DNA of 64,000 nt, from positions 3,220 to 67,219 of the forward strand of contig JAFSZU010000028.1 of the NCBI GenBank assembly GCA_017455585.1, in the 5' to 3' direction. Positions 1,934-62,412 of the stretch are shown here, piece after piece (position 1 is the first letter of the stretch; every line of letters begins with the position of its first letter). Below the pieces are notes generated by a model. It worked only from the letters and a program-made list of their open reading frames with translations. It was not told the DNA's origin and searched no databases. Made by a program: the position numbers and the translations under genes. The DNA is from Bacteroidaceae bacterium. Lineage in GTDB: Bacteria > Bacteroidota > Bacteroidia > Bacteroidales > Bacteroidaceae.

Positions 1934-2001
1934 ATTATAAGGTTTTTAGGTTATAAGGTTTTTAGGTTATAAGGTTTATAGGTTATCAGGTTTTTAAGGT
2001 T
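1934..2001. repeat. AT-rich tandem repeat (AGGTTTTTAGGTTATA, ~16 bp x4) overlapping stop of receptor-1
   Basis: attataaggtttttaggttataaggtttttaggttataaggtttataggttatcaggtttttaaggtt. Confidence 0.8.
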
Positions 2002-5000
2002 CCTCGCCGCGGGCTCGTTTCCGTTCGCTCTTGCGCATGGGCTGGCGATTGAGACGCCACACGGCATGGAAGAGGACGTAGCGGGGCGGGACATTGGTGT
2101 ATGTCTCGATGCGGCCTTGGGCGTTGAGGATGTTGGTGGTGCTGCGCAGCTGGCCGAGGATGTCGAAGCCGTCGAGCATCACGACGAGGTTGCCCTTGAA
2201 GAAGGGACGTGCAAGGCGGGCTTTCCACATCCAGTCGGTGGTGTTCATCGAGGCATCGGCATAGCCGCGGCGGGCATAGAGCGTCAGGTCGGTCGAAAGT
2301 TGCAGCTTCCACGGCAGGTTCAGCAGGACGGAGAAGGTGGTCTTGTAGTCGGCCACATGGAAGTCCGTGAAGTCCGTGCGCGGGCTGTGAAGCCACTGCC
2401 ACTTGGGCTCGCAGTCCAGCTTTAGGTTGCCCAGGTCGCCGAGGCTGTACCTGGCAATCAGCAGCGGGCTTAGGGTGGTGGTGCTGACGGTGCTGCGTTG
2501 CAGTTGTGTCGTACCCGTCAGATCTACACTGTGACGGTAGCCAACGGAAGGCACAACGTAGATGCGCAGTCGGCCTCGCTTGTCGAGCGGCAGGTTACCG
2601 ATGCCATAGCCTCCGATGAATTCCCAGTTACCATTGATGCTGTAGGGCTTGTAGGTTCGGACACCTGTCTCGGGGTTGTAAAGCTGGCTCATGACCGTGG
2701 CGTTCTGCGTCAGGACGAAGTCTATGCCGCCCGTAAGCTTTATCTGCTTATTCTTGTAGTTCTTCTGATGATGCACCTGCATGCTGTGGCGGTAGATATT
2801 GTGCAGGTCGGAGTTGCCTTCGGTGATGTTCAGCGGGTCGGTGGCGTCACGGATGTTGACGTAGTTGAGCATCGAGGGGGCGTCGGCCTTCAGGCGATAG
2901 GCGATGAAGAGGGCGTTGCCGTTGTCCCAGCGTCCCTCGGCATAGCTCCAGTCGGTGTCGAGGAGGACGGTGCGGTGCGTGATGAGCGTATCGACCTGTC
3001 CGCGCTGGTAGTGCAATGTGCGGTTGAGCAGACTTATAGGTAGGCGCTGGCTGATGCTCCAACTACCGTTCTTCATCTTGGGGAACCACCAGAGGAAGGG
3101 TCGCAGGGAGTAGTAATGCTCGGTCAGACGGTAGCTGTAGCTGTTGGCGGCGTCCATGGTCCGCTCATACTCGGCCACGGAGGGCAGCACTCCAACATCC
3201 AGTGTGTCCGTGCGCTCCATTCGGTCTAAGAGGAAGAGCGAGGATTCCCGCTGCGTGTTGCGGTATTCGTAGCTGAGGTGGGTTTCCAAGGAGAGGTTGC
3301 GGCGGATGGTCCAATGGTACATGCCCTGTACCCACAACTTGCCATAGCGGTCAGGGTGGTCGCGGAAGTACTGGTCGCCATAAAATGGCGACCCACCTGA
3401 CACTCGCTGGCGGTTGAAGCGGTCGTCGGCTTTCACGTCGTAGCAGGCATCGGTTTCGAATTCGAAGTAGTCGCTGGTGCCGTCCAGCTTGATGGCTGTG
3501 AAGGTCGAGAGGTTGGGATGCAGGGAATAACCGCTCCGCGAACCCTGTTGTTGGTTGGTATTGATGAGGGAGTCGCCGGCATTCCATGCTTGAGACTGGA
3601 AGGACGAACGGTTGTCCCATCGATGATAGTCAAAGCTGGGTCTGATGCGGAGCTGCACCTTCGGGAAGTTATACTGGAACTGGTTCCATGTGCTCACAGA
3701 GAGTGACTTGTCCTCCGCCACCGAGCGGCTATGCTCGCGGGTGTCGCCGCCGGGCAGGTAGTTCACGCGCTCCGTGACGGTTGTCACATCATTCGTCGTG
3801 TGCTCGGCGCGGACATTGCCCTCCAGCTTCCATTTCTTGTCGCGATCCTCAGTGAAATAGTCGATGCCGCCCTGTTGTCGCGTCTGCTGTCCCGGACTCA
3901 CGCCCATCCTGTAGCCACCGCTTTCACCCGGTCGCTCGCCGTCGTTCAGGTTGTTGACATTGAAGTAGGCCGCAAGCCGCGAGTGGTCCGAGAAACGCAT
4001 GGCCAAGAGGCGGGCGAGGTAACGAAGACCCTCTCCCCGCTCCACCTTTAGGGGGAGAGCCTCGATACGCTCTTTTGCTGTGCGCAGCCACTCCTCTCCC
4101 ACACGGGAGGGGTTGGGGGTGGGTCTGCCCATACCTCCTTCCACATTCACCAGCCATCCGATGCTATATTCCCTCTTCAGCTTCACGTCCATCACATACT
4201 GCTTGTCGTTCTCCAACTGCTGTCCGAGGAACTCGCTCTTGTCTCCATACTTGTCATAAATCTCTACCTGCTTCACCGTATAGGCTGGCAGGTTCTCAAG
4301 CATCACGCGGTTGTCACCACGGAAGAAGTCTTTGCCATTGAGCAGCAGGGCCTCCACGCGCTTGCCGTTGACGGTGATTTCGCCACCGTCCTTCAACTCC
4401 ACGCCCGGCAGCTGCTTCACCAGCGCATCGAGCATGGAACCCTCTGCCAACTGGAAGGCATCGGCGTTATAGACCACTGTGTCGCCACGATAGTAGAACA
4501 TCACCTTCGAGGCGGTGACAGTCACTTCACGCATCGTATGACGTACAGTCTTGTGCATCAGGACGGGTGGCAGTTCGCGCACGAACTCCCGTCTGCCCAC
4601 GTTGCTGAGGTTATAATCCACGTAGGTGGTGTCGTGCCCCTCGAAGGATGCCCGCAGGATGTAAGCCTCCTGACGGTGAGGCACTTCGAAATAGAAGTCC
4701 GATGTGTAGCCGCTATGATCCATATTCATCCAAAACGACTTGGCTTCACGTGTACTGAGCACGGTGCTGTCTCGTGTCATCAACGTTACCACAGCCCCTG
4801 GCAGGTCGTTGCGCGTCATGTTGTCTAATACCTTGCCGTGGATGCTCATCATCTCCTTGTCCTGCTTGCGCTGTACAAAAATTTGACGAAGAGCCTTCTT
4901 CACTTTCACCTTCACGGGTAGGCTCTTCGTCAGCCGCTCCACGGCATCAGGAACGTCTTCTTCCGCTACCGACTCCAACGTGACAGCAGCTTCCAATCCC

Positions 5001-5176
5001 AGCAGTTCATCCGTCACGAAAGTGATGGTCCACTCCTCCTGCTGCTCGTTGAGGCGGGCGAGGGCTTGGGAAAGTGAGAGATGACCCTCCCCCGAAAAGG
5101 GAGCGGTTACCTGTGCTGATATGGGGAATAAGGCCACGCACGCGTATATAATAATAAGGTATAGCAGTCGTTTCAT
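1994..5176 (-). CDS. outer-membrane beta-barrel receptor (TonB-dependent-receptor-like, cell-surface-signalling partner of ECF module 1)
   Basis: 1060-aa ORF. Signal peptide MKRLLYLIIIYACVALFPISAQ. N-terminal STN-like segment, then a CarboxypepD_reg-like segment (IHGKVLDNMTRNDLPGAVVTLM). Plug-like VTVTASKVMFYYRGDTVVYNADAFQLAEGSMLDALVKQLPGVEL, followed by a long barrel. It overlaps the anti-sigma gene by 4 bp. Paralogue of 6471-9716. Confidence 0.75.
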   Translation of the reverse strand: MKRLLYLIIIYACVALFPISAQVTAPFSGEGHLSLSQALARLNEQQEEWTITFVTDELLGLEAAVTLESVAEEDVPDAVERLTKSLPVKVKVKKALRQIFVQRKQDKEMMSIHGKVLDNMTRNDLPGAVVTLMTRDSTVLSTREAKSFWMNMDHSGYTSDFYFEVPHRQEAYILRASFEGHDTTYVDYNLSNVGRREFVRELPPVLMHKTVRHTMREVTVTASKVMFYYRGDTVVYNADAFQLAEGSMLDALVKQLPGVELKDGGEITVNGKRVEALLLNGKDFFRGDNRVMLENLPAYTVKQVEIYDKYGDKSEFLGQQLENDKQYVMDVKLKREYSIGWLVNVEGGMGRPTPNPSRVGEEWLRTAKERIEALPLKVERGEGLRYLARLLAMRFSDHSRLAAYFNVNNLNDGERPGESGGYRMGVSPGQQTRQQGGIDYFTEDRDKKWKLEGNVRAEHTTNDVTTVTERVNYLPGGDTREHSRSVAEDKSLSVSTWNQFQYNFPKVQLRIRPSFDYHRWDNRSSFQSQAWNAGDSLINTNQQQGSRSGYSLHPNLSTFTAIKLDGTSDYFEFETDACYDVKADDRFNRQRVSGGSPFYGDQYFRDHPDRYGKLWVQGMYHWTIRRNLSLETHLSYEYRNTQRESSLFLLDRMERTDTLDVGVLPSVAEYERTMDAANSYSYRLTEHYYSLRPFLWWFPKMKNGSWSISQRLPISLLNRTLHYQRGQVDTLITHRTVLLDTDWSYAEGRWDNGNALFIAYRLKADAPSMLNYVNIRDATDPLNITEGNSDLHNIYRHSMQVHHQKNYKNKQIKLTGGIDFVLTQNATVMSQLYNPETGVRTYKPYSINGNWEFIGGYGIGNLPLDKRGRLRIYVVPSVGYRHSVDLTGTTQLQRSTVSTTTLSPLLIARYSLGDLGNLKLDCEPKWQWLHSPRTDFTDFHVADYKTTFSVLLNLPWKLQLSTDLTLYARRGYADASMNTTDWMWKARLARPFFKGNLVVMLDGFDILGQLRSTTNILNAQGRIETYTNVPPRYVLFHAVWRLNRQPMRKSERKRARGEEP
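4026..4126. repeat. GC-rich hairpin element, double-ended copy, inside receptor-1 CDS
   Basis: AGACCCTCTCCCCGCTCCACCTTTAGGGGGAGAG ... TGCGCAGCCACTCCTCTCCCACACGGGAGGGGTTGGGGGTGGGTCT. Inverted AGACCC/GGGTCT termini and two hairpins. Confidence 0.75.
5083..5111. repeat. GC-rich hairpin element (short variant) in receptor-1 N-terminus
   Basis: GACCCTCCCCCGAAAAGGGAGCGGTTACC. Encodes ..APFSGEGH.. just after the signal peptide. Confidence 0.5.
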
Positions 5177-5793
5177 TGCGCGCCTCCTTTCTGCACAAAG
5201 ATGGTATCTCGCAGCTCTGTCAGTTGCAGCCCATCCAGCTCATTGAGGCTTTCGATGAACACTGCCAGGCTGTCCTCTTGGTTCCACTTGGTGTGAATAC
5301 GGAGTCCTTTCAGTTGCTCATTACCGAAGGACACGGCTTTGCCATAATGCTGGCTCACAATCGCCAGCATGGAGTCCAAGCGGACATCGGCAAAAAGGAT
5401 GGGTGTCCCCCGTAGCCCCCCGGCGGGGGGCGCTTGAAGGCTGCCAACCTTTTCATCCTCCGCCGGGGGATTATAGGGGGCCAGGATTTGTATGCTTGCC
5501 CACACCAACCCACCGAGGAAGACGGCAGCGAGGAAGACGGCGGCAATCTTGCGATAGAAGACCCATCCCGCCCTTCGGGCACCTCTCCCGTGATAGAGGG
5601 GAGTGGCTGCGCACAGTTTCTCCCCATTGATGACTTCCTCCTTCACCAGCATCAGGATAGCATGGCGGTCGGTGGCGAGTTCGTCGGTGCAGTCATCGGC
5701 GAGGAGGTAGCTGACGAGGCGGCGCTCTTCATCGGCCGTCGTCTCGCCGCGGAAGAAACGGTCGCGGAGTATCAAGGCATCATTCTCTTTCAT
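5173..5793 (-). CDS. anti-sigma factor (single TM, FecR_C/DUF4974-like periplasmic domain), module 1
   Basis: Lies between the ECF sigma and receptor genes. TM helix IAAVFLAAVFLGGLVWASIQIL. C-terminal FADVRLDSMLAIVSQHYGKAVSF..IHTKWNQEDSLAVFIESLNELDGLQL resembles the FecR C-terminal domain. Confidence 0.65.
   Translation of the reverse strand: MKENDALILRDRFFRGETTADEERRLVSYLLADDCTDELATDRHAILMLVKEEVINGEKLCAATPLYHGRGARRAGWVFYRKIAAVFLAAVFLGGLVWASIQILAPYNPPAEDEKVGSLQAPPAGGLRGTPILFADVRLDSMLAIVSQHYGKAVSFGNEQLKGLRIHTKWNQEDSLAVFIESLNELDGLQLTELRDTIFVQKGGAQ
5559..5616. repeat. GC-rich hairpin element inside anti-sigma-1 CDS
   Basis: AGACCCATCCCGCCCTTCGGGCACCTCTCCCGTGATAGAGGGGAGTGGCTGCGCACAG. Confidence 0.75.
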
Positions 5794-5805
5794 AGTTGTA
5801 TGGAG

Positions 5806-6315
5806 TTAAGGATTGTCTGGATGTTCATGGAAATAGGAACGTAGTTGCTGGCGGGCGCGGGTGAGGATGGAGCGTGTGTTGGCAGGCGTCTCGCCCAGGA
5901 CGAGGGCGATGTCACGGGTCGTCATGTCGTCGAAGTACTGCATCGTGATGGCACTGCGTGCCTTGGGCTTCAGCGTGGCGAGTGCGAGGCGCAAGCGGCG
6001 CAGGTCGGCGTGCAGCTGTTCGCGCAGTTCCGTGTCCAGCTCGTCGGAGAGGCCATAGACCTCGCTTTCCTCAAGAGATACTGTTTCAGGGTGGCGGCTG
6101 CGCAACAGGTTCAGGCAGTGGTTCCTCAACGTCAGCAGGAAGAAACCCTCGGGCGACACCATGTCATCCAGCCGCTCACCTTGTCGCCACAGTCGCAGGA
6201 AAGTCTCCTGCACGGCGTCCTCGGCCTCCTGCCAATTGCCCAGCAGTGCCAGCGCCGTGCGCATTAGTCGCGTCCGCAGCGGCCAGTATTGTCGTTCAAA
6301 TTCGAGTTGGTTCAT
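5806..6315 (-). CDS. ECF (sigma-70 family) RNA polymerase sigma factor, module 1
   Basis: 169 aa. Region 2 EDAVQETFLRLWRQ..FFLLTLRNHCLNLLR. Region 4 HTH MTTRDIALVLGETPANTRSILTRARQQLR. Confidence 0.85.
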   Translation of the reverse strand: MNQLEFERQYWPLRTRLMRTALALLGNWQEAEDAVQETFLRLWRQGERLDDMVSPEGFFLLTLRNHCLNLLRSRHPETVSLEESEVYGLSDELDTELREQLHADLRRLRLALATLKPKARSAITMQYFDDMTTRDIALVLGETPANTRSILTRARQQLRSYFHEHPDNP

Positions 6316-6383
6316 TGTCTTGTTGTGATGCGTCTCTATTTATAGAACACATGAACCCCAGAAATGTTGCAAGAAGGATGTAG

Positions 6384-6422
6384 AAAAAAACGCCCCGCCA
6401 CGTCTCACGACGCAGCGGGGCG
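6384..6422 (-). terminator. intrinsic terminator after receptor-2 gene
   Basis: Minus strand: CGCCCCGCTGCGTCGTGAGACGTGGCGGGGCG followed by TTTTTTT. Confidence 0.7.
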
Positions 6423-6470
6423 ATGTGCCTATAGGTCTTGATTGTTTACTAACTACTTTATGGAAATCGA

Positions 6471-9400
6471 TTATCTTTTCTTCGGGTTCTTGTTGAAGTG
6501 CCAGACGGCGTGGAGCATGACGTAGTGGGGGAGGGAGCGGTACCAGGTGACGGTGCGGCCCTGGGCATTGATGCTGTAGTCGATGGGCGACAGCTGGTGC
6601 AGGAGGTCGAAGGCCTGGAGACTGAGGATGAACCTGCCCTTTGCCAGGGACTGGCTGAGGGAGGCGTTGACAACGAAGTTGTTTCGGTTGAGGTCGGCTG
6701 TGCCGTAGCCGCGACGGCTGAACATGGTGCCGTCGGCGGCGAGGGTGAGGCCTCCGAACCTGGTGCCCCAGAGGGCGGGTGTGGTGTAGGTGGCTTCGAG
6801 TCCGTACTGGAAGTCGAGGGCGGAAAGGGAAGACCCACCCCCTGCCCCTCCCGTGAGGGAGGGGAGTGGCTGCGCAGAGTGCCGCCAGTTGATTGACCCC
6901 ACAGCGCGGACGTTCAAGGTCTTGCGGTTGTAGCGGATGTTCGCTCCGCTGTTGAGACCGAGGGTATTCACGGTGTTGACACTGCTCTCGTTTTCGCCCT
7001 CCAGCAAGGCGTGGTCCTTGGAATGATTCCAGTCTGCACCTGCGTCGAGATGCCACGTCCAGTAGCGCTTCTCGCCGATGGTGCGGTTGGTGCCGAAGTT
7101 GGCGCGGGCGGCGTAGGCGCCGCTGATGTTCATGGGTTTGTAGGTGCTGATGCCGGTGGCGGGGTCGTAGGTCAGGGACTGTGCGATGTCGCGATGGTGG
7201 TAGTCGAAGGAGGCAGAGAGGTTGTAGGAGTCGTTTCGCGGCCCGGTGCTGTCATAGTATCTGATGTTGAAGGTCGTCTTTGCCGTGGGTTTCAGGTCGG
7301 GGTTGCCCAGCTTGACGATGAGGGGCTGGCTGTCGTCGCGGAAGGTGATGCGGTCCAGCAGGAGGGTGCGCTCCTGGCTGAAGCCGACATTGAAGTTGAG
7401 GTCTCGCCGCCCGCCTTTCCACACGTTGCGATAGCGGAACGTGGCTTTAGGCAGGAACACGGTCTGGCGTGCCAGCGTGTCCAGCGTGCCGCGGTGGTAG
7501 TGGAGGCGTTCGCCGGACAGCGGCGTGCCCACCTCCAGCGCAAACCGCTGGTAGCTGATTTTGGCGTGGAACTGCGGATGCACATAGTAGGCGTTCTTGT
7601 AGAACATGAGACCCACGTCGTTGCTCCAGTCGCGGTCGCGGCTGTCATAGGAGTTCGCGGCATCGGTGATGGCGGTCAGGGCGTCAAGCTGCGAGGGGAG
7701 GAGGGGGGACAGGGAGGTGTCCTCGGCGGGAAAACCGCCGAGCACCAACGCATCGGGCTGTGAAGGACTGCCGGGCACCAACGGGGAGGTACCTTCGGGA
7801 GCGCTCGGCTTTGCCGCTTCGCTTTGCGAAGAACCCTCGGGAACGGTAACGGGGTGGTAGAGGTAGTCGCGGTTGTGCTGGCGGCGGCTGAAGAACCCGT
7901 CGCTGATGCCTATGCGCAGGGCGTTGGGCAGTTCCCATTGGTATCCCATGCGGCCGAGAAACCATGTGCTGCGGTTGAAGAGCGTGTTGGAGTTGTGGGT
8001 GGCTCCCCCATTCTCCTCCGAGGGGGTGGCCGTTCTTGTTTCATACCTTGTCGCACGCTCGCTCTCGTCGTTGCTGTGTTCAAAGTGGAAGAAGTATTCT
8101 AAATGCTTCTTGTCCTTGCCCACATTGAAGGATCCCTGAACATCGAATATAGCATTCCACGCCCGCCCCTCGCTGACGCCCACGGTGCGCTGGCTGACGG
8201 TGAGGCTGTCGCTCCACTGGTCGAAGGCGGAGTTGAACGAGCCGTCGCGACTGGCGTAGCTGTAACGGGCCAGGGAGTAGAGATAGAAGGGCTTGGACAG
8301 CGACAGCGTGTTGTTCAGGCTGAGCCTGCGGTTGCCCGCGCGGTTGAAGGACTCGGTGACGGACGTGGGTGTGCAGCCGTCGATGAACTGTTCGCGGCGC
8401 TGCTGCACGGTCTGCTCGTCGGTCGAAGAGGTGTAATCAGCGCTGAATGTCTCCTTCAGTTTGTCGCCCTTGGTCTGGTAGTTGAGTTCTCCGGCCACGC
8501 TGCGCGTCGTCAGCAGCGATCGCGGCTGGCGCGCCGGGTTCCACTGGTCGGACTGCCCGATATGGCGACCCTCGTTGACGTTATTCGCGTTGGCCAGGAG
8601 CGTGAAGCGCAGACGGTCGGTGAAGCCGAGGAGGAAGCCACGGGCAAGCCACCGCTCCTGAGTGCCTCCTGCCGCTTCTACATTGCCGATGTAGCCTTGG
8701 CTGTATTCGTCCTTCAGGTTCACGTCCATCACATAGCGGCGCGGCTCCACGTCGTAGCCCAGTGCCACGCTCTTGTCGGTCTGCTTCTCATAGACCTTCA
8801 GGTTCTTCACGGTGTAGTACGGCAGGTTCTCCAACAGCACCTTCTTGTTGCCGCCGAAGAACGAGCGGGAGCCGAGCAGCAGCTCATCCACCTTGCGCCC
8901 GTTGACGAATATCTCGCCGTCGACGTTCATGGTCACGCCCGGCAGCTGGCGGATGAGGTCGTCGAGCATGGAGCCGTCGGGCAGCCGGAAGGCCGTGGCG
9001 TCGTAGATGAGCGTGTCGCCGCGGTAGAACATCTTGATCTTGGTGGCCGTGACGGTCACCTCACGCATGGTCTTGGTCGTACCGCGGCGCATCTTCAATG
9101 TGGGCACTTCCACACCGTCCTCAGGCAAGGGACGGGGGATGGTCACCCGTTGCCACACGTCGTCGTAGCCCTCCTGGCTGGCGCGGACGAGGTACTGCGA
9201 CTCGGCGGCACTCACTTCGGCGTTGAACTGTGCCCGAACCATCTTCATACCGCTTCCGTAGAAGACAACGATTTGTGCGGAATCCACCACCACGCTGCTG
9301 TCCGCGCGCAGGATGGAAACCTTTGCATAGGGCAGCGGCATCTCCAGGAAACCGTCCTCCACACAGCCTGAGAGGTGCACCGTCTTGCCTGTGAGGTCTC

Positions 9401-9716
9401 GTTCAGGCTTGTACTGTACAAAGATCTGCTTGCCCCTCGTCTTCACCTTCACGGGCTGTCCCTTGCATACCCGCGCCACCGCCTTGTCGGCTCTGAGATT
9501 CTTGGACGGCCGTGCCGAGACGCGCAGGTGTTCCAGATTGTTGTGGATGAAGTGGATGGCGTATTCTGTCTGCGCTGTTGCCAAAGAGTCAAGGGCAGTG
9601 GCGAGGGAAGACTCTTCCCCCGCCCTCCCTTGTAGGGAGGGAGAGGTTACTTGTGCGGATAGGGGAAATAACGCTGTCGCAAGGACATATATAATAAGGT
9701 ATAACCGTTTCATCAC
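6471..9716 (-). CDS. outer-membrane beta-barrel receptor (TonB-dependent-receptor-like), module 2
   Basis: 1081-aa paralogue of 1994-5176 with the same layout: signal peptide MMKRLYLIIYVLATALFPLSAQ and plug-like VTVTATKIKMFYRGDTLIYDATAFRLPDGSMLDDLIRQLPGVTM. Confidence 0.75.
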   Translation of the reverse strand: MMKRLYLIIYVLATALFPLSAQVTSPSLQGRAGEESSLATALDSLATAQTEYAIHFIHNNLEHLRVSARPSKNLRADKAVARVCKGQPVKVKTRGKQIFVQYKPERDLTGKTVHLSGCVEDGFLEMPLPYAKVSILRADSSVVVDSAQIVVFYGSGMKMVRAQFNAEVSAAESQYLVRASQEGYDDVWQRVTIPRPLPEDGVEVPTLKMRRGTTKTMREVTVTATKIKMFYRGDTLIYDATAFRLPDGSMLDDLIRQLPGVTMNVDGEIFVNGRKVDELLLGSRSFFGGNKKVLLENLPYYTVKNLKVYEKQTDKSVALGYDVEPRRYVMDVNLKDEYSQGYIGNVEAAGGTQERWLARGFLLGFTDRLRFTLLANANNVNEGRHIGQSDQWNPARQPRSLLTTRSVAGELNYQTKGDKLKETFSADYTSSTDEQTVQQRREQFIDGCTPTSVTESFNRAGNRRLSLNNTLSLSKPFYLYSLARYSYASRDGSFNSAFDQWSDSLTVSQRTVGVSEGRAWNAIFDVQGSFNVGKDKKHLEYFFHFEHSNDESERATRYETRTATPSEENGGATHNSNTLFNRSTWFLGRMGYQWELPNALRIGISDGFFSRRQHNRDYLYHPVTVPEGSSQSEAAKPSAPEGTSPLVPGSPSQPDALVLGGFPAEDTSLSPLLPSQLDALTAITDAANSYDSRDRDWSNDVGLMFYKNAYYVHPQFHAKISYQRFALEVGTPLSGERLHYHRGTLDTLARQTVFLPKATFRYRNVWKGGRRDLNFNVGFSQERTLLLDRITFRDDSQPLIVKLGNPDLKPTAKTTFNIRYYDSTGPRNDSYNLSASFDYHHRDIAQSLTYDPATGISTYKPMNISGAYAARANFGTNRTIGEKRYWTWHLDAGADWNHSKDHALLEGENESSVNTVNTLGLNSGANIRYNRKTLNVRAVGSINWRHSAQPLPSLTGGAGGGSSLSALDFQYGLEATYTTPALWGTRFGGLTLAADGTMFSRRGYGTADLNRNNFVVNASLSQSLAKGRFILSLQAFDLLHQLSPIDYSINAQGRTVTWYRSLPHYVMLHAVWHFNKNPKKR
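6831..6878. repeat. GC-rich hairpin element inside receptor-2 CDS
   Basis: AGACCCACCCCCTGCCCCTCCCGTGAGGGAGGGGAGTGGCTGCGCAG. This is a near-consensus copy. Confidence 0.8.
7719..7750. repeat. CGG hairpin type 1 in receptor-2 CDS
   Basis: GTCCTCGGCGGGAAAACCGCCGAGCACCAACG. Confidence 0.65.
7828..7854. repeat. PEG box (encodes PVTVPEGS) in receptor-2 CDS
   Basis: GAAGAACCCTCGGGAACGGTAACGGGG. Confidence 0.7.
9609..9650. repeat. GC-rich hairpin element in receptor-2 N-terminus
   Basis: AGACTCTTCCCCCGCCCTCCCTTGTAGGGAGGGAGAGGTTAC. Confidence 0.65.
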
Positions 9717-9737
9717 TCAATCAATTTTAGAAGGTGA

Positions 9738-9775
9738 CTACTCCTTCCCTTTGAGGGAAGGTGAGGGGAGGGTCT
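9738..9775. repeat. GC-rich hairpin element forming the last codons and stop of anti-sigma-2
   Basis: CTACTCCTTCCCTTTGAGGGAAGGTGAGGGGAGGGTCT. The CTA at 9738-9740 is the TAG stop on the minus strand. Confidence 0.65.
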
Positions 9776-10319
9776 TAACAAACACAGTGTCTCTTTCTTC
9801 CGTCACCTGTAAACCGTCGAACTCATTGAGCATGGTGATGAACGTCGCCAGAGAATCCTCGCGGTCCCACGTGATGGTGAAGCGCAGGTTGCGCGATGCC
9901 TCGTCGAGGAACTGCACCTGCTGCTTGTAGTGCGCCGCCACCACAGAGAGAATGCTGTCCAAGCGGACGTCGGAGAAACGGACGGGCGAAGCCCCCCGTA
10001 GCCCCCCGGTGGGGGGCGTTTGAAGACTGCCAACCTTTTCATCCCCCACTGGGGGATTATAAGGGGTCAGGATTTGTATGCTTGCCCACGCCAGCGCGCC
10101 GAGGAAGACGGCGGCGATGAGGATGGCAGCCATGCGGCGGTAACGATTGAGTCTAAGGAGGAACGGATTTTCGGATGCAGTCCCCCTCTCTTGCGTCCTC
10201 AGTTCCAGAGACTTCTCCATCAGTTGATCTACAAAGTCCTCGGAGTGTGGTGACGATGGCGGTGTGATGCGGCGGAGGGCATCACGCAGGTCGGAATGAG
10301 TGTTGTTCATTGTTCTCAA
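9738..10319 (-). CDS. anti-sigma factor (single TM, FecR_C-like), module 2
   Basis: Paralogue of 5173-5793 (AAILIAAVFLGALAWASIQIL; FSDVRLDSILSVVAAHYKQQVQF). The start could be the ATG at 10310 (MNNTHSDL). It overlaps the 3' end of the sigma gene. Confidence 0.6.
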   Translation of the reverse strand: MRTMNNTHSDLRDALRRITPPSSPHSEDFVDQLMEKSLELRTQERGTASENPFLLRLNRYRRMAAILIAAVFLGALAWASIQILTPYNPPVGDEKVGSLQTPPTGGLRGASPVRFSDVRLDSILSVVAAHYKQQVQFLDEASRNLRFTITWDREDSLATFITMLNEFDGLQVTEERDTVFVKTLPSPSLKGKE

Positions 10320-10914
10320 TGTTTAGGATAAGTGAGTAGAGTTTGCGGCGCAGACGATACAGGCGGCTGTAGAGGGCATCTGCTTCAGTGCCGAGGATGT
10401 AGGCTATGTCAGCCACGCCACGTTCCTCGGCATACCGCATGTAGAGCAGGTTGCGCTCCTCGTCCGTCAGGGTGGCGAGGGCTCGTGTCAGGCTCTCCAC
10501 GCGGTCGGGGCGTCCTGTGGAGAAAGCGGCATCCAGCTCCGCCTCCGATACGTCGGCCAGTTCAATGGTGTGTCTGGCAACAGCTGGCGCATCTATGGGC
10601 AACGTCGGCACTTGTGGATGCAACCGCAAGTGATTCAGGGCTGTGTTATAGGCGATGCGACTGAGCCACGTCGGCAGCGAGGCACGCGCGGGGTCATAGC
10701 TGTCGAGTCCCTGAAATACCTTCAGCAAAGTATCCTGCAATACCTCCTCTGCCTCGGCGGCATGGTGTATCATGCCGCGGATCAGCGTCAGCAGTTGCTG
10801 CCCGTAGGCATCGACCAGCGTCTGGCAGGCACCGCGGTCACCAGCCCTGGCGGCACGTATCATCTGTATGTCATCTGTCTGTGTCATTCTACTCATATAT
10901 ACAACCTGCATCAT
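10282..10914 (-). CDS. ECF (sigma-70 family) RNA polymerase sigma factor, module 2
   Basis: Region 2 AEEVLQDTLLKVFQGLDSYD..WLSRIAYNTALNHLR. Region 4 ERGVADIAYILGTEADALYSRLYRLRRKL. The exact start is uncertain because there are several N-terminal Met codons. Confidence 0.8.
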   Translation of the reverse strand: MMQVVYMSRMTQTDDIQMIRAARAGDRGACQTLVDAYGQQLLTLIRGMIHHAAEAEEVLQDTLLKVFQGLDSYDPARASLPTWLSRIAYNTALNHLRLHPQVPTLPIDAPAVARHTIELADVSEAELDAAFSTGRPDRVESLTRALATLTDEERNLLYMRYAEERGVADIAYILGTEADALYSRLYRLRRKLYSLILNIENNEQHSFRPA

Positions 10915-56850: not shown

Positions 56851-58368
56851 TCAAGCCCTCTTTTCCTGTCCTTTGCACAATTTGATTTTCCACACCGTGA
56901 AGCGGATGAGGCAAGCGGTGGTGAGGACGGCGGCGATGATGAGGGAGGGTGTCTCTGGCAAGGATAGGGTGGTGGGGGAGGCCAGGAAGAAGTCTGTGAC
57001 CACCATGGTCATGAAGATGGCAGGCAGCAGTGTCAACATATATAGTTTATGTTCGCGCGCAAGATAGACAGTGCAGATCCACAGCGTGACGGCGGCCATG
57101 AGCTGTGTGCCCCATGCCACATACTGCCACACGGTGCTGAACCCTGAAGGATTGCCAATCTGCCAGGCCAGCAGGGCGATGCCCACGGCAAAGACGGGCA
57201 GCGAGAGCAACAGACGGGAGCGGGCGGTGGTCTGCTTCAGACCCAGGGCCTCGGTGAGAATCAGGCGGGCACTGCGGAACGAGCTGCCGCCCGTGGTGAT
57301 GGGGGCTGCCACCACACCGAGCAGGGCCAGGATGCTGCCGGCCAGTCCCAGCCACGAGGCACAGATGGTTGTGACCACCGTGGGCGCGTCGAAGAACTGG
57401 ATGAGCGAGCGGCCGTCGGCATGGCGGATGAGACCGTCGGCACCCGCGGTGAACTGCTGCACCAACTCGGGCGAGCAGACGTCCTTCCACCCGTCGGCAA
57501 AGAAGAAGTAGCTGGAGATGGTGGCCCAGACGAGTGCCACCAGACCCTCGGTGACCATGGCACCGTAGAAGATGGGGCGCCCCTGCCGCTCGCTCTTCAT
57601 GCAGCGCGCCATCATGGGCGACTGCGTGGCGTGGAAGCCGCTGACGGCTCCGCAGGCGATGGTGACAAAGAGGGCAGGGAAGAGGGGCTGCTTCAGACCC
57701 AGGTGTTCCGGTCCCCAGTTGCCCAGACCGTCCCAGACCTCGGGCAGCACGGGCTGCTTCCAGAACAGTACGACACCGATGGCAATCACCATGAAGAGCA
57801 TGGACAGCGCAAAAGCGGGATAGATCTTGCCGATGACCTTGTCGATAGGCATCATGGTGGTGGCCACGTAGTAGAGGAAGATGAGTACCACCCACATCAT
57901 CTTGTCGCCCCATATGCCGCTGAGGATGATGGCAGGACAATAGACAAAGAACGCGCCCACGAGCACCATCATCATCATCGTGAAGAGAATCATGCCCTTG
58001 CGCGCCATGCTGCCCAGATAGATGCCGGTGAGCTCGGCCTGTCCGCAGCCGTCGTGGCGCATGGACAGCATGCCGCTGATGTAGTCGTGCACCGCGCCGC
58101 CGAAGATGCAACCGAAGACAATCCACAGGTAGGCAGCAGGGCCGAACCACATGCCCATGATGGCACCGAAGATGGGGCCTGTGCCGGCAATGTTGAGGAA
58201 CTGAATCATGAAGATGCGCCAGGAGGGCAGGACGATGTAGTCCATCTTGTCGGCCTTGCGGATGGCAGGGGTCTCGCGGTCATCGGGACCGAAGATGCGT
58301 TCGGCCACGCGCCCGTAGAGGAGATAGCCCACGAAGAGGGCGATGACGCTGAGTGTAAAGGAAATCAT
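56851..58368 (-). CDS. cstA: carbon starvation protein A (peptide/pyruvate transporter family)
   Basis: Re-started at ATG 58368 (MISFTLSVIALFVGYLLYGRVAERIFGPDDRETPA..FGAIMG..). Polytopic. A TAACTTTG box lies 42 nt upstream. Confidence 0.85.
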   Translation of the reverse strand: MISFTLSVIALFVGYLLYGRVAERIFGPDDRETPAIRKADKMDYIVLPSWRIFMIQFLNIAGTGPIFGAIMGMWFGPAAYLWIVFGCIFGGAVHDYISGMLSMRHDGCGQAELTGIYLGSMARKGMILFTMMMMVLVGAFFVYCPAIILSGIWGDKMMWVVLIFLYYVATTMMPIDKVIGKIYPAFALSMLFMVIAIGVVLFWKQPVLPEVWDGLGNWGPEHLGLKQPLFPALFVTIACGAVSGFHATQSPMMARCMKSERQGRPIFYGAMVTEGLVALVWATISSYFFFADGWKDVCSPELVQQFTAGADGLIRHADGRSLIQFFDAPTVVTTICASWLGLAGSILALLGVVAAPITTGGSSFRSARLILTEALGLKQTTARSRLLLSLPVFAVGIALLAWQIGNPSGFSTVWQYVAWGTQLMAAVTLWICTVYLAREHKLYMLTLLPAIFMTMVVTDFFLASPTTLSLPETPSLIIAAVLTTACLIRFTVWKIKLCKGQEKRA

Positions 58369-58409
58369 TTTGAAGTGTCTTTGTTGTGGATTTGGTTGAA
58401 TTGCCGCCG

Positions 58410-58417
58410 CAAAGTTA
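58410..58417 (-). promoter_or_regulatory. Bacteroidota -7 box (TAACTTTG) for cstA
   Basis: TAnnTTTG match 42 nt upstream of ATG 58368. Confidence 0.5.
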
Positions 58418-58696
58418 CGGAAAAAGCTTGTAACAAACGAGGAATTTTGGAAATTCTTTGCAAGCAAAGCGTCCTTTTAGGCCGAGCGAGCGCAATTCGG
58501 GCTAAGAATATGCAAAAACGGGGTCGAATGAGTACGTCCGTCCATTATTTAACATCTTTTATGAGTAATCTTTCCGAGCGTTTTGCGTTATATAGACAGA
58601 ACGTTTTCGATAAGCCATGAGCAGAGCCAAACTTGCATGAACAATACCATGGCGAGAAAATGAAGGATGCAATCCTGTGACTTAAAGTGAAGACTT

Positions 58697-59641
58697 ATGA
58701 ACAAGGAACACAGCAACGAGCTTGAATTTGCTCAGATAGAGAAGCGGCTGCGCCCACGGCTGATGCAGATGGGGCGCGAGTTCTTCGGCTCCGACACCGA
58801 GGCCGAGGAGGTGGTGCAGGAAACGTGGCTGCGGGCATGGAGTGTCCGGGACAGGGTAGAGTTCACCGATGCCTACATCCTGCGCATTGCACGCAACGTC
58901 TGTGTCAGTATGTGGCGCGGACAGCGGGTACAAACGGAGTTGACAGATGAGGAAAGTGCCGCTATCACTGAGATTACACCACAGGAAGAAGTGGAGGAGC
59001 GCGAAAACTCCGAATGGTTGCAGTCGCGCCTCCAGCGTCTGCCCCAGGCCGAGCGCGAAGTGTGGCAGTTATTCTACGACGAGGGGCTGACCGTGGAGGA
59101 GATTGCCGAAGCGCGAGGTACGACGGTCGCCACTGTTCGTAAGACCATCAGCAACGTGCGCAACCGCTTGCGTAAAGACATACGCCGCCACTTCTTCGGA
59201 TTGCGTCATCTGCTCATCTTTATCATTATTGCACTGGCTACGGGTATAGCCGTAGCGGCCATTATCAGTCCGCGTGGCACGGTGCGCGGGGTCATAGAGA
59301 AAGTCTTCCACCTGCCCGAGGACACAACTATCTGCGATATCCCGGAAGTGATGCCCAGCTATCGTGGTGACGTTGATGCCCTATACAGGCACATCGCTTT
59401 CGAGATGCATTATCCCGATGCTGCGCAGGCCGATAGCGTGCAGGGGCGCGTCATCATCCGTTTCGTGGTTGAGAAGGACGGTAGGCTTACTAACTTTGAA
59501 GTAGTGCGCACACCTGACGACCGCCTCAGTGCCGAGGCCATCCGCGTCCTGCGTCTGACCGAGCCTTGGCAGCCCGCCCAGAATCAAGGTCGCCCTGTTC
59601 GCTGCCACTTCTGCGTGCCCGTCTCGTTTAGGTTAAGGTGA
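58697..59641 (+). CDS. fusion: ECF sigma factor (regions 2 and 4) + TM helix + TonB C-terminal domain
   Basis: Region 2 AEEVVQETWLRAWSVRD..ILRIARNVCVSMWR. Region 4 EREVWQLFYDEGLTVEEIAEARGTTVATVRKTISNVRNRL. TM helix LLIFIIIALATGIAVAAII. TonB_C-like PSYRGDVDALYRHIAFEMHYPDAAQADSVQGRVIIRFVVEKDGRLTNFEVV. Confidence 0.7.
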   Translation: MNKEHSNELEFAQIEKRLRPRLMQMGREFFGSDTEAEEVVQETWLRAWSVRDRVEFTDAYILRIARNVCVSMWRGQRVQTELTDEESAAITEITPQEEVEERENSEWLQSRLQRLPQAEREVWQLFYDEGLTVEEIAEARGTTVATVRKTISNVRNRLRKDIRRHFFGLRHLLIFIIIALATGIAVAAIISPRGTVRGVIEKVFHLPEDTTICDIPEVMPSYRGDVDALYRHIAFEMHYPDAAQADSVQGRVIIRFVVEKDGRLTNFEVVRTPDDRLSAEAIRVLRLTEPWQPAQNQGRPVRCHFCVPVSFRLR

Positions 59642-59697
59642 ATATATTTTTCATAAAGCAGTTATTTAGTAAACAGAAAGACCTATAGGCATCTTGG

Positions 59698-59736
59698 CCT
59701 CACTGCGTCGCGATGACACGGTGGGGCTTTTCTTTT
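59698..59736 (+). terminator. intrinsic terminator after sigma::TonB_C fusion gene
   Basis: CCTCAC-N17-GTGGGG followed by CTTTTCTTTT. Confidence 0.6.
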
Positions 59737-59962
59737 AACATCCCATTCACGGCAAACGGGCAGACTATTGGAACGAAATCCAATACACCGACATCTACAT
59801 TGAAGGACAGACCGCCACAGAATACCACACCATGCCGCACGGTTTCCAAGGTGAAAACGATTATCTGGTGGAGAAGTTTGCGCACACCAGAGAAGGTGCT
59901 TTTTGTGTCTTTTGGAAATCAAGGCACCCATCGTACAAGAGGGGTCATCTAAATAGTCTATA

Positions 59963-62242
59963 TCAGATAGTTTCTTTTTTGGGTTCCCGATACTCCGAAG
60001 GGGTGATGCCGAACATCTTCTTGAACTGCGTGGAGAAGTAGCGGGGAGTGGTGAAGCCTACGCGCTCGGAGATCTCGACGATGGAGAGGTCGGTGTCGGA
60101 TAGTAGGACGGCAGCACGTTTGAGGCGGACGCTGCGGATGAAGTCGTTGGGCGTGATGCCCAACATAGTCTGCATGCGCTTGTAGAGGTTGGTGCGTCCG
60201 AGAGCCACGTCGCGGGCCAGTTGGTCAACGCTGTATTCCGTGTTGTCGAGGTTCTGTTCTATGGCTTTCAGAAGCTGACCGACAAGGGCTTCTTCCTCGC
60301 TGTTGACACCAATCTTGGAGGCATCGATGCGTACGTTATCCACGAATTGCTTGCGGGCTTGCTCGCGCAATTCAAAGAGGTGGTTGACACGCTCCTCGGC
60401 TTCGGCTTCGAGGCGGGCCCGCTTCTTCTTCAAATAGAATTCTATAAGCCCTATAAGCCCCATTAGCCCTATAAGCCCATAAATCATCTTCATCCACCAG
60501 GTGAGCCACCATGGCGGGCGGATGGTGAAGGGTATGGACAGGGCTTCGCCCCATTCGCCTCCTGCGACAGAGGCTTGTGCCTCGAAGACGTATCGACCTG
60601 GCTGCAGAGCGTTATAGGAGGCCGTGGCAAGTCCCGTGCCGCTGCTGTCGTAGAGCCAGTCGCGGTCGAGACCAACAAGACGATAGCGGTAGATGGTATG
60701 TTCAGGAGCTGCGTAGTTGAGGGCGGAGAAACGGAAGGTGAGGTAGTTCTGGGAGTGGGGGAAAAGCCCCCTCCCGACCTCCCTTAAGGGGGAGGGGACT
60801 GGCTGCCCGTTAACCTCGAAGCTGACGAGGTGGACGGGAAACGTGGTCGAATCAGCTACGAACCACTCCGGACGAATGGTAACGAGACCCATGGTGTGCT
60901 GCACGAACACCAGGCGCCCATCGTCCAAGAGGGTTGCTGCCCGCTCATCCATCGAAACCTGTGGCACGCCGTCAGAAAGACCCAAATTCAGAATGGGAAA
61001 TGGCTCGTGAGCTCCAACCCTGCTGATTCCGCTTGATGAGCCTACCCATATATTGCCCTCCTTGTCCTCCACAAGGCTACGTATGCAGTTGTTAGCTAAC
61101 CCCTCCATACGAGTAACTTCAGCACAATTATGAATTATAAATTGTGAATTATGAATTAAAAAGAGTCCATTCTGTGTTCCGAGCCACAATCGTCCCTTGC
61201 TGTCTCGCAGGGCGCAGTTGTATTTTTCTGTCCAACGTGCTATCTCGCTTGCTGGGGCAAACTCGTTGATGCTGTCGTGCTTGACATCAAGCAGGAAGGC
61301 ACCGTTCTGGGAATACACCAACACATCATTCTCCGTCAATGGGCAGGCTCCCACAATCCAGCGATAGTTGGCCTCTATCTGTGGCAGTTTGCGGTTTAAG
61401 ACATCGAACGAAAGGGCTTCCGGGTCGAAATAGCCGAGGTTGTTGCCGTTGTTACAAAGCAACAATCGGCCGTCAGGCAACTCTGTGATAAACACAATCC
61501 GATTATGTACGAAGCCTGGGACGTTGTCTTGTCCGTAGCGTATGGCCCTGCTCTCAGGCCCCAGGAAGTCGGACTCGGAACGGCAGTAGAGACCATTCAT
61601 GGTGCATTGCCATGCTCGCCCCTGAGAGTCCTGCATATAGCGGGCAGCATGGAGCAGGCTATCATTGTGTCCGATATAGATGGCCTGCGGACGCGGCGGA
61701 CGGACGTAGAACAAGCCGTTGCCACGAGTGCCTATCCAGCGACCACCCTGTCGGTCGGTCATAGCATGTGCCACCTTCGACGCAGTTCCCAGACTATCAG
61801 CTAACTGCTGCCAAGAATCATCAGGACTCTCGTAAGTTCCCTCTCCGGCTACCAACTGGTTCAGTTGTTCTGACGTAAGGCGCGCTTCCACATCATAACG
61901 AAATGCCCTCTCACGCGCATCGAACAAATAAAGGTGATAGAAGTCGCGCAGCCACAGCAGCGAGTCACCTTGCCACAGATGGGCATAGCCGCCAAAATGT
62001 TCCAGCCGATATGTGCGACTGAGGTCACACGAGATTTCCCGGAATGTCTGACCGTCGAACATACAGAAAGCGCCCTCGCAGTTCACCAACACCTGCCCGT
62101 TCGGCAGTTCCACCACCTGGCGCACTTCGTTCGTGATGAGTCCGTCGCCCACCGTATAGTGATGCCACACGTTCTGTCCGAAAGACATAAGTGTGCAGCC
62201 GAAAGATAACAATGGAATAACAATGTATAGGAAGCGTCTCAT
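59963..62242 (-). CDS. one-component transmembrane sensor-regulator: periplasmic beta-propeller/Y_Y_Y domain + TM + AraC-type HTH (no kinase or receiver)
   Basis: Re-started at ATG 62242 (MRRFLYIVIPLLSF). Reg_prop-like repeats. Y_Y_Y block (YRYRLVGLDRDWLY..GRYVFEAQA). TM helix. C-terminal AraC HTH (ISERVGFTTPRYFSTQFKKMFGITPSEYR). Confidence 0.75.
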   Translation of the reverse strand: MRRFLYIVIPLLSFGCTLMSFGQNVWHHYTVGDGLITNEVRQVVELPNGQVLVNCEGAFCMFDGQTFREISCDLSRTYRLEHFGGYAHLWQGDSLLWLRDFYHLYLFDARERAFRYDVEARLTSEQLNQLVAGEGTYESPDDSWQQLADSLGTASKVAHAMTDRQGGRWIGTRGNGLFYVRPPRPQAIYIGHNDSLLHAARYMQDSQGRAWQCTMNGLYCRSESDFLGPESRAIRYGQDNVPGFVHNRIVFITELPDGRLLLCNNGNNLGYFDPEALSFDVLNRKLPQIEANYRWIVGACPLTENDVLVYSQNGAFLLDVKHDSINEFAPASEIARWTEKYNCALRDSKGRLWLGTQNGLFLIHNSQFIIHNCAEVTRMEGLANNCIRSLVEDKEGNIWVGSSSGISRVGAHEPFPILNLGLSDGVPQVSMDERAATLLDDGRLVFVQHTMGLVTIRPEWFVADSTTFPVHLVSFEVNGQPVPSPLREVGRGLFPHSQNYLTFRFSALNYAAPEHTIYRYRLVGLDRDWLYDSSGTGLATASYNALQPGRYVFEAQASVAGGEWGEALSIPFTIRPPWWLTWWMKMIYGLIGLMGLIGLIEFYLKKKRARLEAEAEERVNHLFELREQARKQFVDNVRIDASKIGVNSEEEALVGQLLKAIEQNLDNTEYSVDQLARDVALGRTNLYKRMQTMLGITPNDFIRSVRLKRAAVLLSDTDLSIVEISERVGFTTPRYFSTQFKKMFGITPSEYREPKKETI
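60442..60478. repeat. 10-bp tandem repeat (CTATAAGCCC) encoding part of the sensor's TM helix
   Basis: ctataagccctataagccccattagccctataagccc. Encodes GLIGLMGLIGLI. Confidence 0.65.
60765..60806. repeat. GC-rich hairpin element inside AraC-type sensor CDS
   Basis: AGCCCCCTCCCGACCTCCCTTAAGGGGGAGGGGACTGGCTGC. Confidence 0.7.
61126..61157. repeat. 32-bp AATTATGAATT-type module inside AraC-type sensor CDS
   Basis: aattatgaattataaattgtgaattatgaatt. Encodes ..LIHNSQFIIHN.. Confidence 0.7.
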
Positions 62243-62412
62243 GTCATTAATCCTTGGTTTGCAAGGGCAAAAGTAGTAAAAACCCTTTAATGGACAGCAT
62301 AAAAGCGTCCAAAATCGTACATGAAGCATCAAAAACCGTCCATTTTATCGATGTGAACGATTCTTTCGGGCTGTTTCGAACGCATGATGATTAAAAAAAC
62401 TATCTCATTTTC

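Follow-up and report, generated by a model that had tools for sequence, protein, structure and literature searches.

Among sigma factors of the extracytoplasmic function (ECF) type that are fused to a membrane anchor, IutY of Pseudomonas putida (ECF243) is a sigma/anti-sigma hybrid of aerobactin cell-surface signalling. Its sigma domain is freed by the S41-type peptidase Prc and then by RseP (PMC5411451; PMC8999054), and Prc is required only if the periplasmic part exceeds about 50 residues (PMC5411451). A gene within a 64,000-nucleotide stretch from a Bacteroidaceae bacterium (the window; assembly GCA_017455585.1, contig JAFSZU010000028.1, positions 3,220 to 67,219 of the forward strand) encodes a protein with the same layout: an N-terminal ECF sigma factor, one membrane helix and a periplasmic sensor in one polypeptide. 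The sensor is a TonB C-terminal domain (TonB_C). This sigma-TonB_C protein is very probably a real membrane-anchored, autoregulated sigma factor with the regulon described below, and it may well be a tethered pro-sigma factor that is released by proteolysis. Like IutY, it is tied to an outer-membrane barrel, here a probably TonB-dependent one, and proteases of both kinds, S41-type and site-2, are at hand as well. The periplasmic part of IutY is of the FecR type and reads the STN domain of IutA, whereas the sensor here is TonB_C and no STN domain was detected in the linked barrel. Unlike IutY, the fusion has no room for a cytoplasmic anti-sigma segment and comes from Bacteroidales. By analogy, it may work like the IutY-type hybrids despite having no FecR domain and no STN partner.

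Membrane-spanning C-terminal extensions are also predicted for ECF48, ECF52, ECF53 (e.g., SCO4117 of Streptomyces coelicolor), ECF01-Gob and ECF263, and these membrane-fused groups are regarded as one-component systems in which proteolysis presumably frees the sigma factor (PMC8999054; PMC7826278). They share with the fusion an ECF sigma factor and a C-terminal extension with a transmembrane helix and an extracytoplasmic domain. Their extensions differ in having a zinc-finger anti-sigma before the membrane helices and carbohydrate-binding, WD40 or multi-helix domains outside. No member is reported with TonB_C or comes from Bacteroidota, and the main texts searched make no mention of a TonB_C extension.

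The combination of a periplasmic TonB_C domain with a cytoplasmic part that controls transcription occurs in BlaR1-like M56 peptidases, such as BT0813/TonB1 and BT3898/TonB10 of Bacteroides thetaiotaomicron and a protein of the window's own genome (C91:9688-11253). The TonB_C domains of the M56-type proteins share 37-42% identity with that of the fusion. Through their metalloprotease part they cut BlaI, a separate repressor, while the output of the fusion is the attached sigma factor. TonB_C is the second most common sensor domain/architecture among about 15,000 BlaR-like M56 proteins (preprint 10.64898/2026.04.08.717257); TonB1 and TonB10 of B. thetaiotaomicron are uncharacterised (PMC10350073). 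Canonical TonB (238 aa, encoded on contig C9 of the same genome, and that of E. coli) has the same C-terminal fold with the motifs Y-P, GRV..F.V..DG and W.PA..G. It has a short cytoplasmic N-terminus, an N-terminal anchor and a linker of about 100 residues, whereas the fusion has a 165-residue sigma factor before the helix and a linker of about 20 residues. The helix of the genome's own TonB is without the enterobacterial S-x3-H motif. FecI/FecR/FecA-type trios, two of which lie in the window, also couple an ECF sigma factor to an outer-membrane barrel and pass a signal across the inner membrane, but they divide this among three polypeptides, one of them a FecR_C-type anti-sigma and another a barrel with an N-terminal signalling domain.

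The full-text literature searched held no description of the sigma and TonB_C combination, its promoter or its regulon. The initial annotation of this DNA had named no characterised example; this stands for the exact combination, but IutY is a characterised analogue with sigma factor, helix and periplasmic sensor. The general design is of a known kind, and the sigma-TonB_C combination, the promoter motif and the regulon are the new part. The proteins are already in public databases under generic names.

The gene is one intact open reading frame (ORF) with an ATG start and 314 codons plus a stop. Pfam found four domains in the 314-aa protein, each over its gathering cut-off: Sigma70_r2 (PF04542, residues 17-77, 42.4 bits), Sigma70_r4_2 (PF08281, residues 106-158, 39.7 bits), Sigma70_r4 (PF04545, 35.4 bits; both region-4 matches together span residues 106-160) and TonB_C (PF03544, residues 237-313, 63.5 bits, E 2.5e-17). 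Pfam gave no match to sigma regions 1.1 and 3 and none to FecR or FecR_C; the periplasmic domain is TonB_C. NCBIfam assigned the sigma70-ECF superfamily (TIGR02937, 76.3 bits, cut-off 42.9) and tonB_Cterm (TIGR01352, 46.1 bits, cut-off 27.1). All named ECF subgroup models of NCBIfam stayed under their cut-offs, the best of them being sigma_PG0214 (NF058625) at 92.9 versus 130 bits and TIGR02985 at 87.1 versus 126.4 bits. Region 2 is the best-conserved part, with a mean identity to the query of 0.91 in 120 homologues. In the alignment with SigW of B. subtilis (5wuq), query residue 163 corresponds to SigW residue 185/187, so the sigma part is complete. From its end, it is about 6 residues to the hydrophobic stretch LLIFIIIALATGIAVAAII (residues 171-189), and the juxtamembrane residues R163, F166, L169, R170 and H171 ahead of the membrane helix are invariant.

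An AlphaFold2 model of the fusion, made with 35 family members in the alignment, has a mean predicted local distance difference test score (pLDDT) of 79. It shows the usual helices of sigma regions 2 and 4 and an unbroken helix from residue 144 to 189, formed by the last region-4 helix and the membrane helix. The whole periplasmic part comprises about 125 residues. Foldseek matched the N-terminal half to SigW (5wur, E 4e-6) and also to SigE, SigL and CnrH. The C-terminal domain matched 6i97_D (TM-score 0.76, root mean square deviation 1.6 A) as well as 9dc4_T and 2gsk_B; these TonB matches are TonB C-terminal domains crystallised on FoxA, TbpA and BtuB. TonB C-terminal domains add a partner beta-strand, the TonB box, to their sheet, as visible in 6i97 and 2gsk. 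The fusion has an invariant H-Y-P motif in this domain (H238, Y239, P240), and the blocks GRV..FVVE.DG, PD..L..EA.RV and W.PA..G are invariant or nearly so.

Sequence families and modelled fold agree on an ECF sigma factor, one membrane helix and a periplasmic TonB C-terminal domain in one polypeptide, which confirms the central claim of the initial annotation. Its further suggestion that the protein merges the anti-sigma role into the fusion needs correction. There is no anti-sigma domain, and about 6 residues between region 4 and the helix would allow inhibition by tethering at most.

A search of 5.8 billion proteins gave 1028 homologues at E<=0.001. All 120 homologues listed have the same four Pfam domains, at 73-99% identity, and are named 'RNA polymerase sigma factor' or 'TonB family protein' of Prevotella sp. 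or Bacteroidaceae bacterium in the databases. In at least 30 independent genomes, a single stop-free reading frame runs across the fusion, and a frameshift that joined two genes is thereby excluded. The ratio of nonsynonymous to synonymous substitutions (dN/dS) was estimated pairwise after Nei-Gojobori with 19 genes; dS was near saturation and the ratios are rough. They are about 0.10 for the sigma part, 0.11 for the TonB_C domain, 0.18 for the membrane helix and 0.21 for the linker, the least constrained region. Judged by these ratios, both halves are under comparable purifying selection.

The architecture forms one narrow family, as far as the genomes and libraries surveyed indicate. A protein library with clustering at 50% identity contains the full-length fusion as one cluster (P0121) plus fragments; the other top matches listed there aligned only via TonB_C repeats, and their domain content was not scanned. 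The gene is present in 14 of 179 genomes of the window's genus and in 15 of 401 genomes of its Prevotella-like Bacteroidales family, where it occurs in 7 of 35 genera at 55-79% identity. It was absent from 16 genomes of other families of the order and from a phylum-wide sample of 400 genomes. The window's own genome is a metagenome-type assembly of 201 contigs and 80% completeness. It has a second sigma-TonB_C copy on contig C50 with 79% identity. Directly upstream of this paralogue (C50:254-3250 (+), L011), where the contig begins, lie a zf-HC2 putative anti-sigma (321 aa) and a second S41/M23-like protein (672 aa).

The gene has a conserved promoter-like motif. About 55 nt upstream are kept nearly base for base in six aligned loci, with the consensus TTTAACATCTTTTAT(G/A)GGTAAA, 15 nt, then GCGTTATA(T/A)(A/G)GGCAGAA; the short form is TTTAACATCTTTTATGGGTAAA-N15-GCGTTATA. 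In the window, the 5' block TTTAACATCTTTTATGAGTAAT at 58548-58569 has 2 mismatches to TTTAACATCTTTTATGGGTAAA, and GCGTTATA is at 58585-58592. The motif is upstream of every family member examined. In the six-locus alignment, a second copy lies downstream of the gene's terminator, ahead of the next gene. Counted from its first base, the motif is 71-93 nt away from the start codon in three gene classes: sigma-TonB_C, a GLPGLI-family lipoprotein or a barrel, and an S41-type peptidase. In the window, the distance to the ATG is 149 nt versus 73 nt in most members, owing to an insertion of about 76 nt in the leader that is common to the window and one relative, L002.

In the own genome, the motif occurs exactly four times and always ahead of a gene: one copy for each sigma-TonB_C gene, one before a GLPGLI gene on C50, which is followed by a CarboxypepD_reg outer-membrane protein, and one before an S41/M23-like peptidase gene on contig C91. 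The 22-nt block was searched with up to 2 mismatches in the 179 genomes of the genus. It is present in 20 genomes, including 14 of 14 sigma-positive ones with 2-4 copies each, and the gene occurs in none of the 159 genomes without the motif. The reversed pattern, used as control, had no match in the 179 genomes. Six genomes have the motif only. In G068 and G180, it lies at a contig end that cuts off the gene, and G068 retains the first 99 codons. G111 and G148 have degenerate matches, and the remaining two are considered below. Family members of other genera with 55-58% identity keep TTTAAC (positions 1-6) and GCGTTATA (positions 38-45) at the same spacing. The block at positions 16-22, GGGTAAA, is changed to TGTGAA or TGTGAT in two of these three divergent members; the third keeps a main-type GAGTAAG.

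Two conserved blocks with a fixed spacer are the anatomy of a promoter. An AAC...CGT layout is typical of ECF promoters, and ECF sigma factors are classically autoregulated. From co-occurrence and position, we infer that the motif is the putative promoter of this sigma factor and that the gene would be autoregulated from it. Rfam had no match in 58300-60000, so the motif and the box at the 3' side of the gene lie outside known RNA families.

The motif contains an ATG and was also considered as a coding N-terminus or an upstream ORF. This was ruled out. The same motif stands ahead of unrelated genes, and in the window, stops lie between its ATG and the ORF. At GLPGLI promoters, an in-frame stop follows after 10 codons, and in the two divergent members with the altered block, the ATG is lost or at once followed by a stop; therefore, the motif is a DNA signal. 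Gene callers often start genes at the motif-internal ATG (ATGGGTAAA...). The resulting models of 333-345 aa carry a spurious N-terminal extension of 20-30 residues (MGKLFGRFALYGQN...), and the S41 gene on C91 has the same miscalled start (MGKDSLAEALYRRQG...).

The motif-borne genes define a short predicted regulon. At 23 distinct sigma-TonB_C loci, the next gene on the same strand is a GLPGLI gene in nine (including a 46-aa remnant in the window), a barrel gene in seven and an S41 gene in one. A regulon gene is thus the immediate downstream neighbour in 17 of 23 loci, and GLPGLI or barrel in 16 of 23. The barrel is downstream in two of the three most divergent members. In locus L054 (genome G146), the order is OMP_b-brl_3, motif and sigma-TonB_C, motif and three GLPGLI genes with a 920-aa barrel, motif and a 726-aa S41 gene. 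In L053 (G134), sigma-TonB_C is followed by an ordinary trio of ECF sigma, FecR_C and OMP_b-brl_3, then by motif with S41 and a redoxin-like protein, and motif with six GLPGLI genes and the barrel. The link to TonB-dependent outer-membrane proteins suggested by the initial annotation gains support from the motif and from this downstream neighbourhood of GLPGLI and transporter-like barrel.

The barrel of about 900 aa has an N-terminal CarboxypepD_reg domain in Pfam, as in SusC-type transporters. This is the only domain found at its N-terminus, and STN was not detected. An invariant LKEVSVRA..KI segment (L106 K107 E108 ... A113) is TonB-box-like and is followed by a plug-like DVLKRMPGIEV...KFNGKSI..FYVEDMDLL. 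The AlphaFold2 model has 22 long strands (331-919), with a mean pLDDT of 50 and segment 103-332 unmodelled. All top Foldseek matches are TonB-dependent transporters (Fiu, SusC BT2264, BauA, RagA, TbpA), at TM-scores of about 0.15. Some members are named 'TonB-dependent receptor' by NCBI. On these sequence features and the model, the barrel is probably, not certainly, a TonB-dependent transporter.

The S41-type peptidase of the regulon has about 700 aa and is S41/M23-like. On C91 (7023-11621 (-), L012), BlaI and BlaR1(M56)-TonB_C are followed by a small reverse-strand insert, the motif and the S41/M23-like gene of about 700 aa; L023, L027, L034, L035 and L041 have this order, too. Some regulons include a secreted protein of about 136 aa that consists of a signal peptide and a lone TonB_C (PF03544, 66.8 bits). 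It may be a competitor or partner of the TonB_C domain of the sigma factor.

A mechanism can be proposed from these parts. The N-terminal 165 residues are a complete cytoplasmic ECF sigma factor, with its last helix running into the transmembrane helix. The tethered sigma factor would be inactive, as region 4 would be held against the membrane without a flexible linker. Once free, it would read the motif as promoter, including that of its own gene. The TonB_C domain would act as a sensor at the periplasmic face of the inner membrane by binding an exposed beta-strand. The likeliest ligand would be the TonB box of the transporter-like barrel that the regulon itself encodes, or of this barrel in transit. 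It would also be the most economical ligand and would make the fusion a one-protein version of cell-surface signalling. The long N-terminal region of the barrel, the GLPGLI protein or the soluble TonB_C protein could also serve as ligand, and in some genomes, the soluble regulon-encoded protein may compete with the sensor domain. A signal would lead to periplasmic trimming, intramembrane cleavage by a site-2 protease and a free sigma factor, in an IutY-like manner. With its adjacent target operon deleted (see below), the window copy would have to act in trans, on the motif-bearing promoters of other contigs (C50, C91).

Proteolytic release is plausible. A Peptidase_M50 (site-2 protease) is encoded in 4 of 4 sigma-positive genomes with at least 90% completeness, the predicted regulon has an S41-type gene, and IutY provides a precedent. 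A more specific version is tentative: the TonB_C domain of the sigma factor could read the TonB-box exposure of its own barrel, and so its ligand occupancy or assembly state, without STN or anti-sigma. Capture of the TonB box would trigger S41 and site-2 cleavage, and the soluble TonB_C decoy would provide negative feedback in some genomes.

Several observations weigh against this mechanism or the regulon on which it builds. With about 20 residues, the linker cannot bridge the periplasm, which makes it doubtful that the domain directly touches the TonB box of an outer-membrane barrel once this is assembled. For the barrel, Pfam as well as PDB phmmer and profile searches gave no Plug or TonB_dep_Rec match, and its model is of low confidence (pLDDT 50, Foldseek TM-scores about 0.15). 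The S41-like proteins keep a SASA serine motif but are without an obvious G-K catalytic lysine, and their catalytic base was not identified. The window's own genome, at 80% completeness, yielded no site-2 protease. G046 (75% complete) and G192 (86%) carry good motifs without a detected sigma gene. The motif, (G)GTAAA(C)-N15/16-CGTTA, resembles the ECF AAC...CGT layout only loosely, a likeness seen without formal comparison. The 5' half of the motif is perfectly conserved over more than the length of a -35 element, and another factor could be bound there.

Release may not be needed if the sigma factor is active while in the membrane, in the manner of ToxR or CadC, with ligand binding or dimerisation of TonB_C switching the activity without cleavage. 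The architecture and regulon evidence is the same as for the tethered pro-sigma factor. TonB C-terminal domains are known to dimerise in crystals, e.g., 1u07, which is among the Foldseek matches. The regulon products are envelope proteins, and their co-translational insertion would hold the genes near the membrane. The modelled continuous helix of region 4 and membrane anchor argues against this, as at most 6-8 residues lie between them and the -35 and upstream DNA would clash with the bilayer. IutY, the only characterised fused sigma factor, needs release (PMC5411451), and a membrane-bound active sigma factor was not found in the literature search. Activity in the membrane is, on this evidence, unlikely, though it deserves to be kept in view.

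The motif may instead be the operator or promoter of another regulator, for example a second ECF sigma factor or the repressor BlaI, which is encoded next to it together with BlaR1(M56)-TonB_C; the genes behind the motif would then not be the true regulon of the sigma-TonB_C protein. In at least six genomes, BlaI-BlaR1-TonB_C has the motif-S41 unit directly on its downstream side. A weak dyad, TTTAnC-N10-GnTAAA, is visible in the 5' block, part of which exceeds a usual -35 element in length. Across the genus, however, it is the sigma gene that the motif tracks (14/14), rather than the BlaR1 orthologue. Only eight genomes of the genus have a close BlaR1 orthologue, and at least six motif-positive genomes are without one. 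G135, the only sigma-negative genome with the orthologue, has neither motif nor S41 gene there and no sigma gene. The motif is also found ahead of every sigma-TonB_C gene, including the members of 55% identity in other genera, as is classic for ECF autoregulation. A BlaI operator is rated unlikely, since the motif follows the sigma gene, and foreign control of the motif in general appears rather improbable.

The protein may also be a working TonB paralogue that energises the regulon barrel via ExbB/ExbD, with the sigma factor coupling transporter use to transcription. It has a complete C-terminal domain with the invariant Y-P motif that fits TonB-transporter complexes, the regulon includes a barrel like those of TonB-dependent transporters, and NCBI uses the name 'TonB family protein'. 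A true energy-transducing TonB role, as the TonB part of the initial annotation would have it, is nevertheless made very improbable by the short linker (about 20 residues, versus about 100 in the genome's ordinary TonB). Unlike in any TonB tested, a folded domain of 165 residues precedes the membrane helix, which is internal, and neither exbB nor exbD appeared in the inspected loci. A sigma domain does not occur in the 11 TonBs of B. thetaiotaomicron, and those of them with extra domains are all uncharacterised (PMC10350073). An assembly or frameshift artefact or a decaying gene, for which the fragmented 80% complete metagenome-type assembly and the decayed downstream operon could be cited, is ruled out for practical purposes by more than 1000 homologues of the same architecture, with the same open frame in clusters from independent samples and no stop in at least 30 genomes, and by the equal constraint on both halves (dN/dS about 0.1).

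Envelope signalling in Bacteroidales, such as the Prevotella-like bacteria of gut and rumen, is known mainly from hybrid two-component systems and from trios of SusC, anti-sigma and ECF sigma. TonB_C domains on regulatory proteins are very common in the phylum and, to our knowledge, none has a known function. The fusion is not a new principle; it is a compact, promoter-defined system that could assign a function to regulatory TonB_C domains. It is a tractable case, with a single small gene, a sharply defined promoter motif in 2-4 copies per genome and a short regulon. The motif is confined to genomes with the gene or to incomplete assemblies, and the output would be directly readable. If TonB_C proves to be a sensor of TonB boxes or beta-strands, this would suggest a function for many other TonB_C fusion proteins. 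Such a result would also make the fusion the second experimentally accessible membrane-bound sigma precursor after IutY. The sigma-promoter pair might serve as an orthogonal expression switch for Bacteroidales.

Table 1. Positions of the sigma-TonB_C gene, its parts and the surrounding features. Positions are those of the window unless a contig (C) or locus (L) of the comparison is named.
Feature	Position	Strand	Support or remark
Sigma-TonB_C gene	58697..59641	+	Pfam, NCBIfam, homologue search, AlphaFold2, Foldseek
Sigma region 2, residues 17-77	58745..58927	+	PF04542; best-conserved protein part
Sigma region 4, residues 106-163	59012..59185	+	PF08281 + PF04545; ends where free ECF sigma factors such as SigW end
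Single transmembrane helix, residues ~170-189	59204..59263	+	AlphaFold2 helix; LLIFIIIALATGIAVAAII
Periplasmic linker, residues 190-210	59264..59326	+	pLDDT 50-58; conserved P.G..RG...LPEDTTI motif
TonB C-terminal domain, residues 211-314	59327..59638	+	PF03544; pLDDT ~90; Foldseek; dN/dS 0.11
Promoter-like motif of the sigma-TonB_C gene	58548..58602	+	six-locus alignment, genus co-occurrence
5' leader with ~76-nt insertion relative to most family members	58603..58696	+	flank alignment, motif-ATG distances
3' box ATAAAGCAGTTATTTAGTAAACAGAAAGACCTATAGGCA	59653..59691	+	one copy in the window at <=3 mismatches
Intrinsic-terminator-like hairpin (GGCCUCACUG...CGGUGGGGCU), then UUUUCUUUU	59696..59737	+	centroid structure
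Truncated second promoter motif (TTTAACATC only)	59734..59742	+	match breaks after 9 nt; deletion junction
GLPGLI-family gene remnant, 46 codons	59742..59879	+	tblastn, blastn
Reg_prop/Y_Y_Y/AraC regulator, no kinase domains	59963-62332	-	
Alginate_lyase-family gene	from 62451		
Two tandem cell-surface-signalling-type trios	1994-10914	-	
3' box copies	window 59653-59737 (+), ~6380-6470 (-); C50 ~4440-4520 (+); C91 ~6940-7010 (-)		
Lone-TonB_C secreted protein	L053:13315-13725, L026:1581-2093 (+); L063, downstream of sigma gene		in motif-driven GLPGLI operons or right after sigma-TonB_C

The conserved 3' box noted by the initial annotation does exist behind the gene, and a terminator hairpin comes next (Table 1). 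Its consensus is ATAAAG(C/T)AGTTA..TAGTAAACA..AAG(A/T)CCTATAGGCAC, then a GC-rich hairpin (inner CGTCG.GA.ACG) and a T-run. The core AAG(A/T)CCTATAGGCA with the hairpin has four copies in the genome. Three follow genes of the sigma-TonB_C regulon and the fourth lies after a 1081-aa outer-membrane barrel gene. The box is kept after the gene in 4 of 6 aligned loci and could be a lineage-specific terminator module or an element of the 3' untranslated region. The predicted fold of 59645-59742 has a minimum free energy of -22.5 kcal/mol, and an equivalent hairpin is kept in orthologous loci. Located between its own promoter motif and this predicted terminator, the gene appears to be monocistronic.

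Behind the hairpin, relatives have a full motif ahead of GLPGLI/barrel genes at the position of the window's truncated copy. The GLPGLI remnant in the window corresponds to residues 122-167 of the intact C50 paralogue (C50:4604-5641), with 87% amino acid identity (tblastn E 4e-26; blastn 87.6% identity over 129 nt). The truncated motif is joined directly to this remnant; the adjacent target operon was therefore lost by deletion.

The convergent AraC-type regulator gene begins after the remnant. The neighbours pointed out by the initial annotation, this AraC-type sensor without kinase and the lyase gene, are present, but they are not conserved partners. A functional link to the window neighbours (CstA, the AraC-type regulator and the alginate-lyase family) was rejected, as the neighbourhoods differ in every other locus. 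By this comparison, the AraC-type sensor and the alginate-lyase gene are chance neighbours.

The two tandem trios each encode an ECF sigma factor (169 and 210 aa), a short FecR_C-type anti-sigma (206 and 193 aa) and, of 1060 and 1081 aa, an outer-membrane protein of the OMP_b-brl_3 kind whose N-terminal region is signalling-like. The 169-aa trio sigma factor is the closest paralogue of the fusion's sigma part in the genome, at 30% identity. Among the metagenomic loci of the family, the upstream flanks of L003 and L008 carry a TCATTCG/TCATTCA tandem repeat with units of 6-7 nt. Next to the sigma-TonB_C gene, the metagenomic contigs of L005 (6718-8001) and L008 (8951-10521) have 1.3 to 1.5 kb in which no gene was called.

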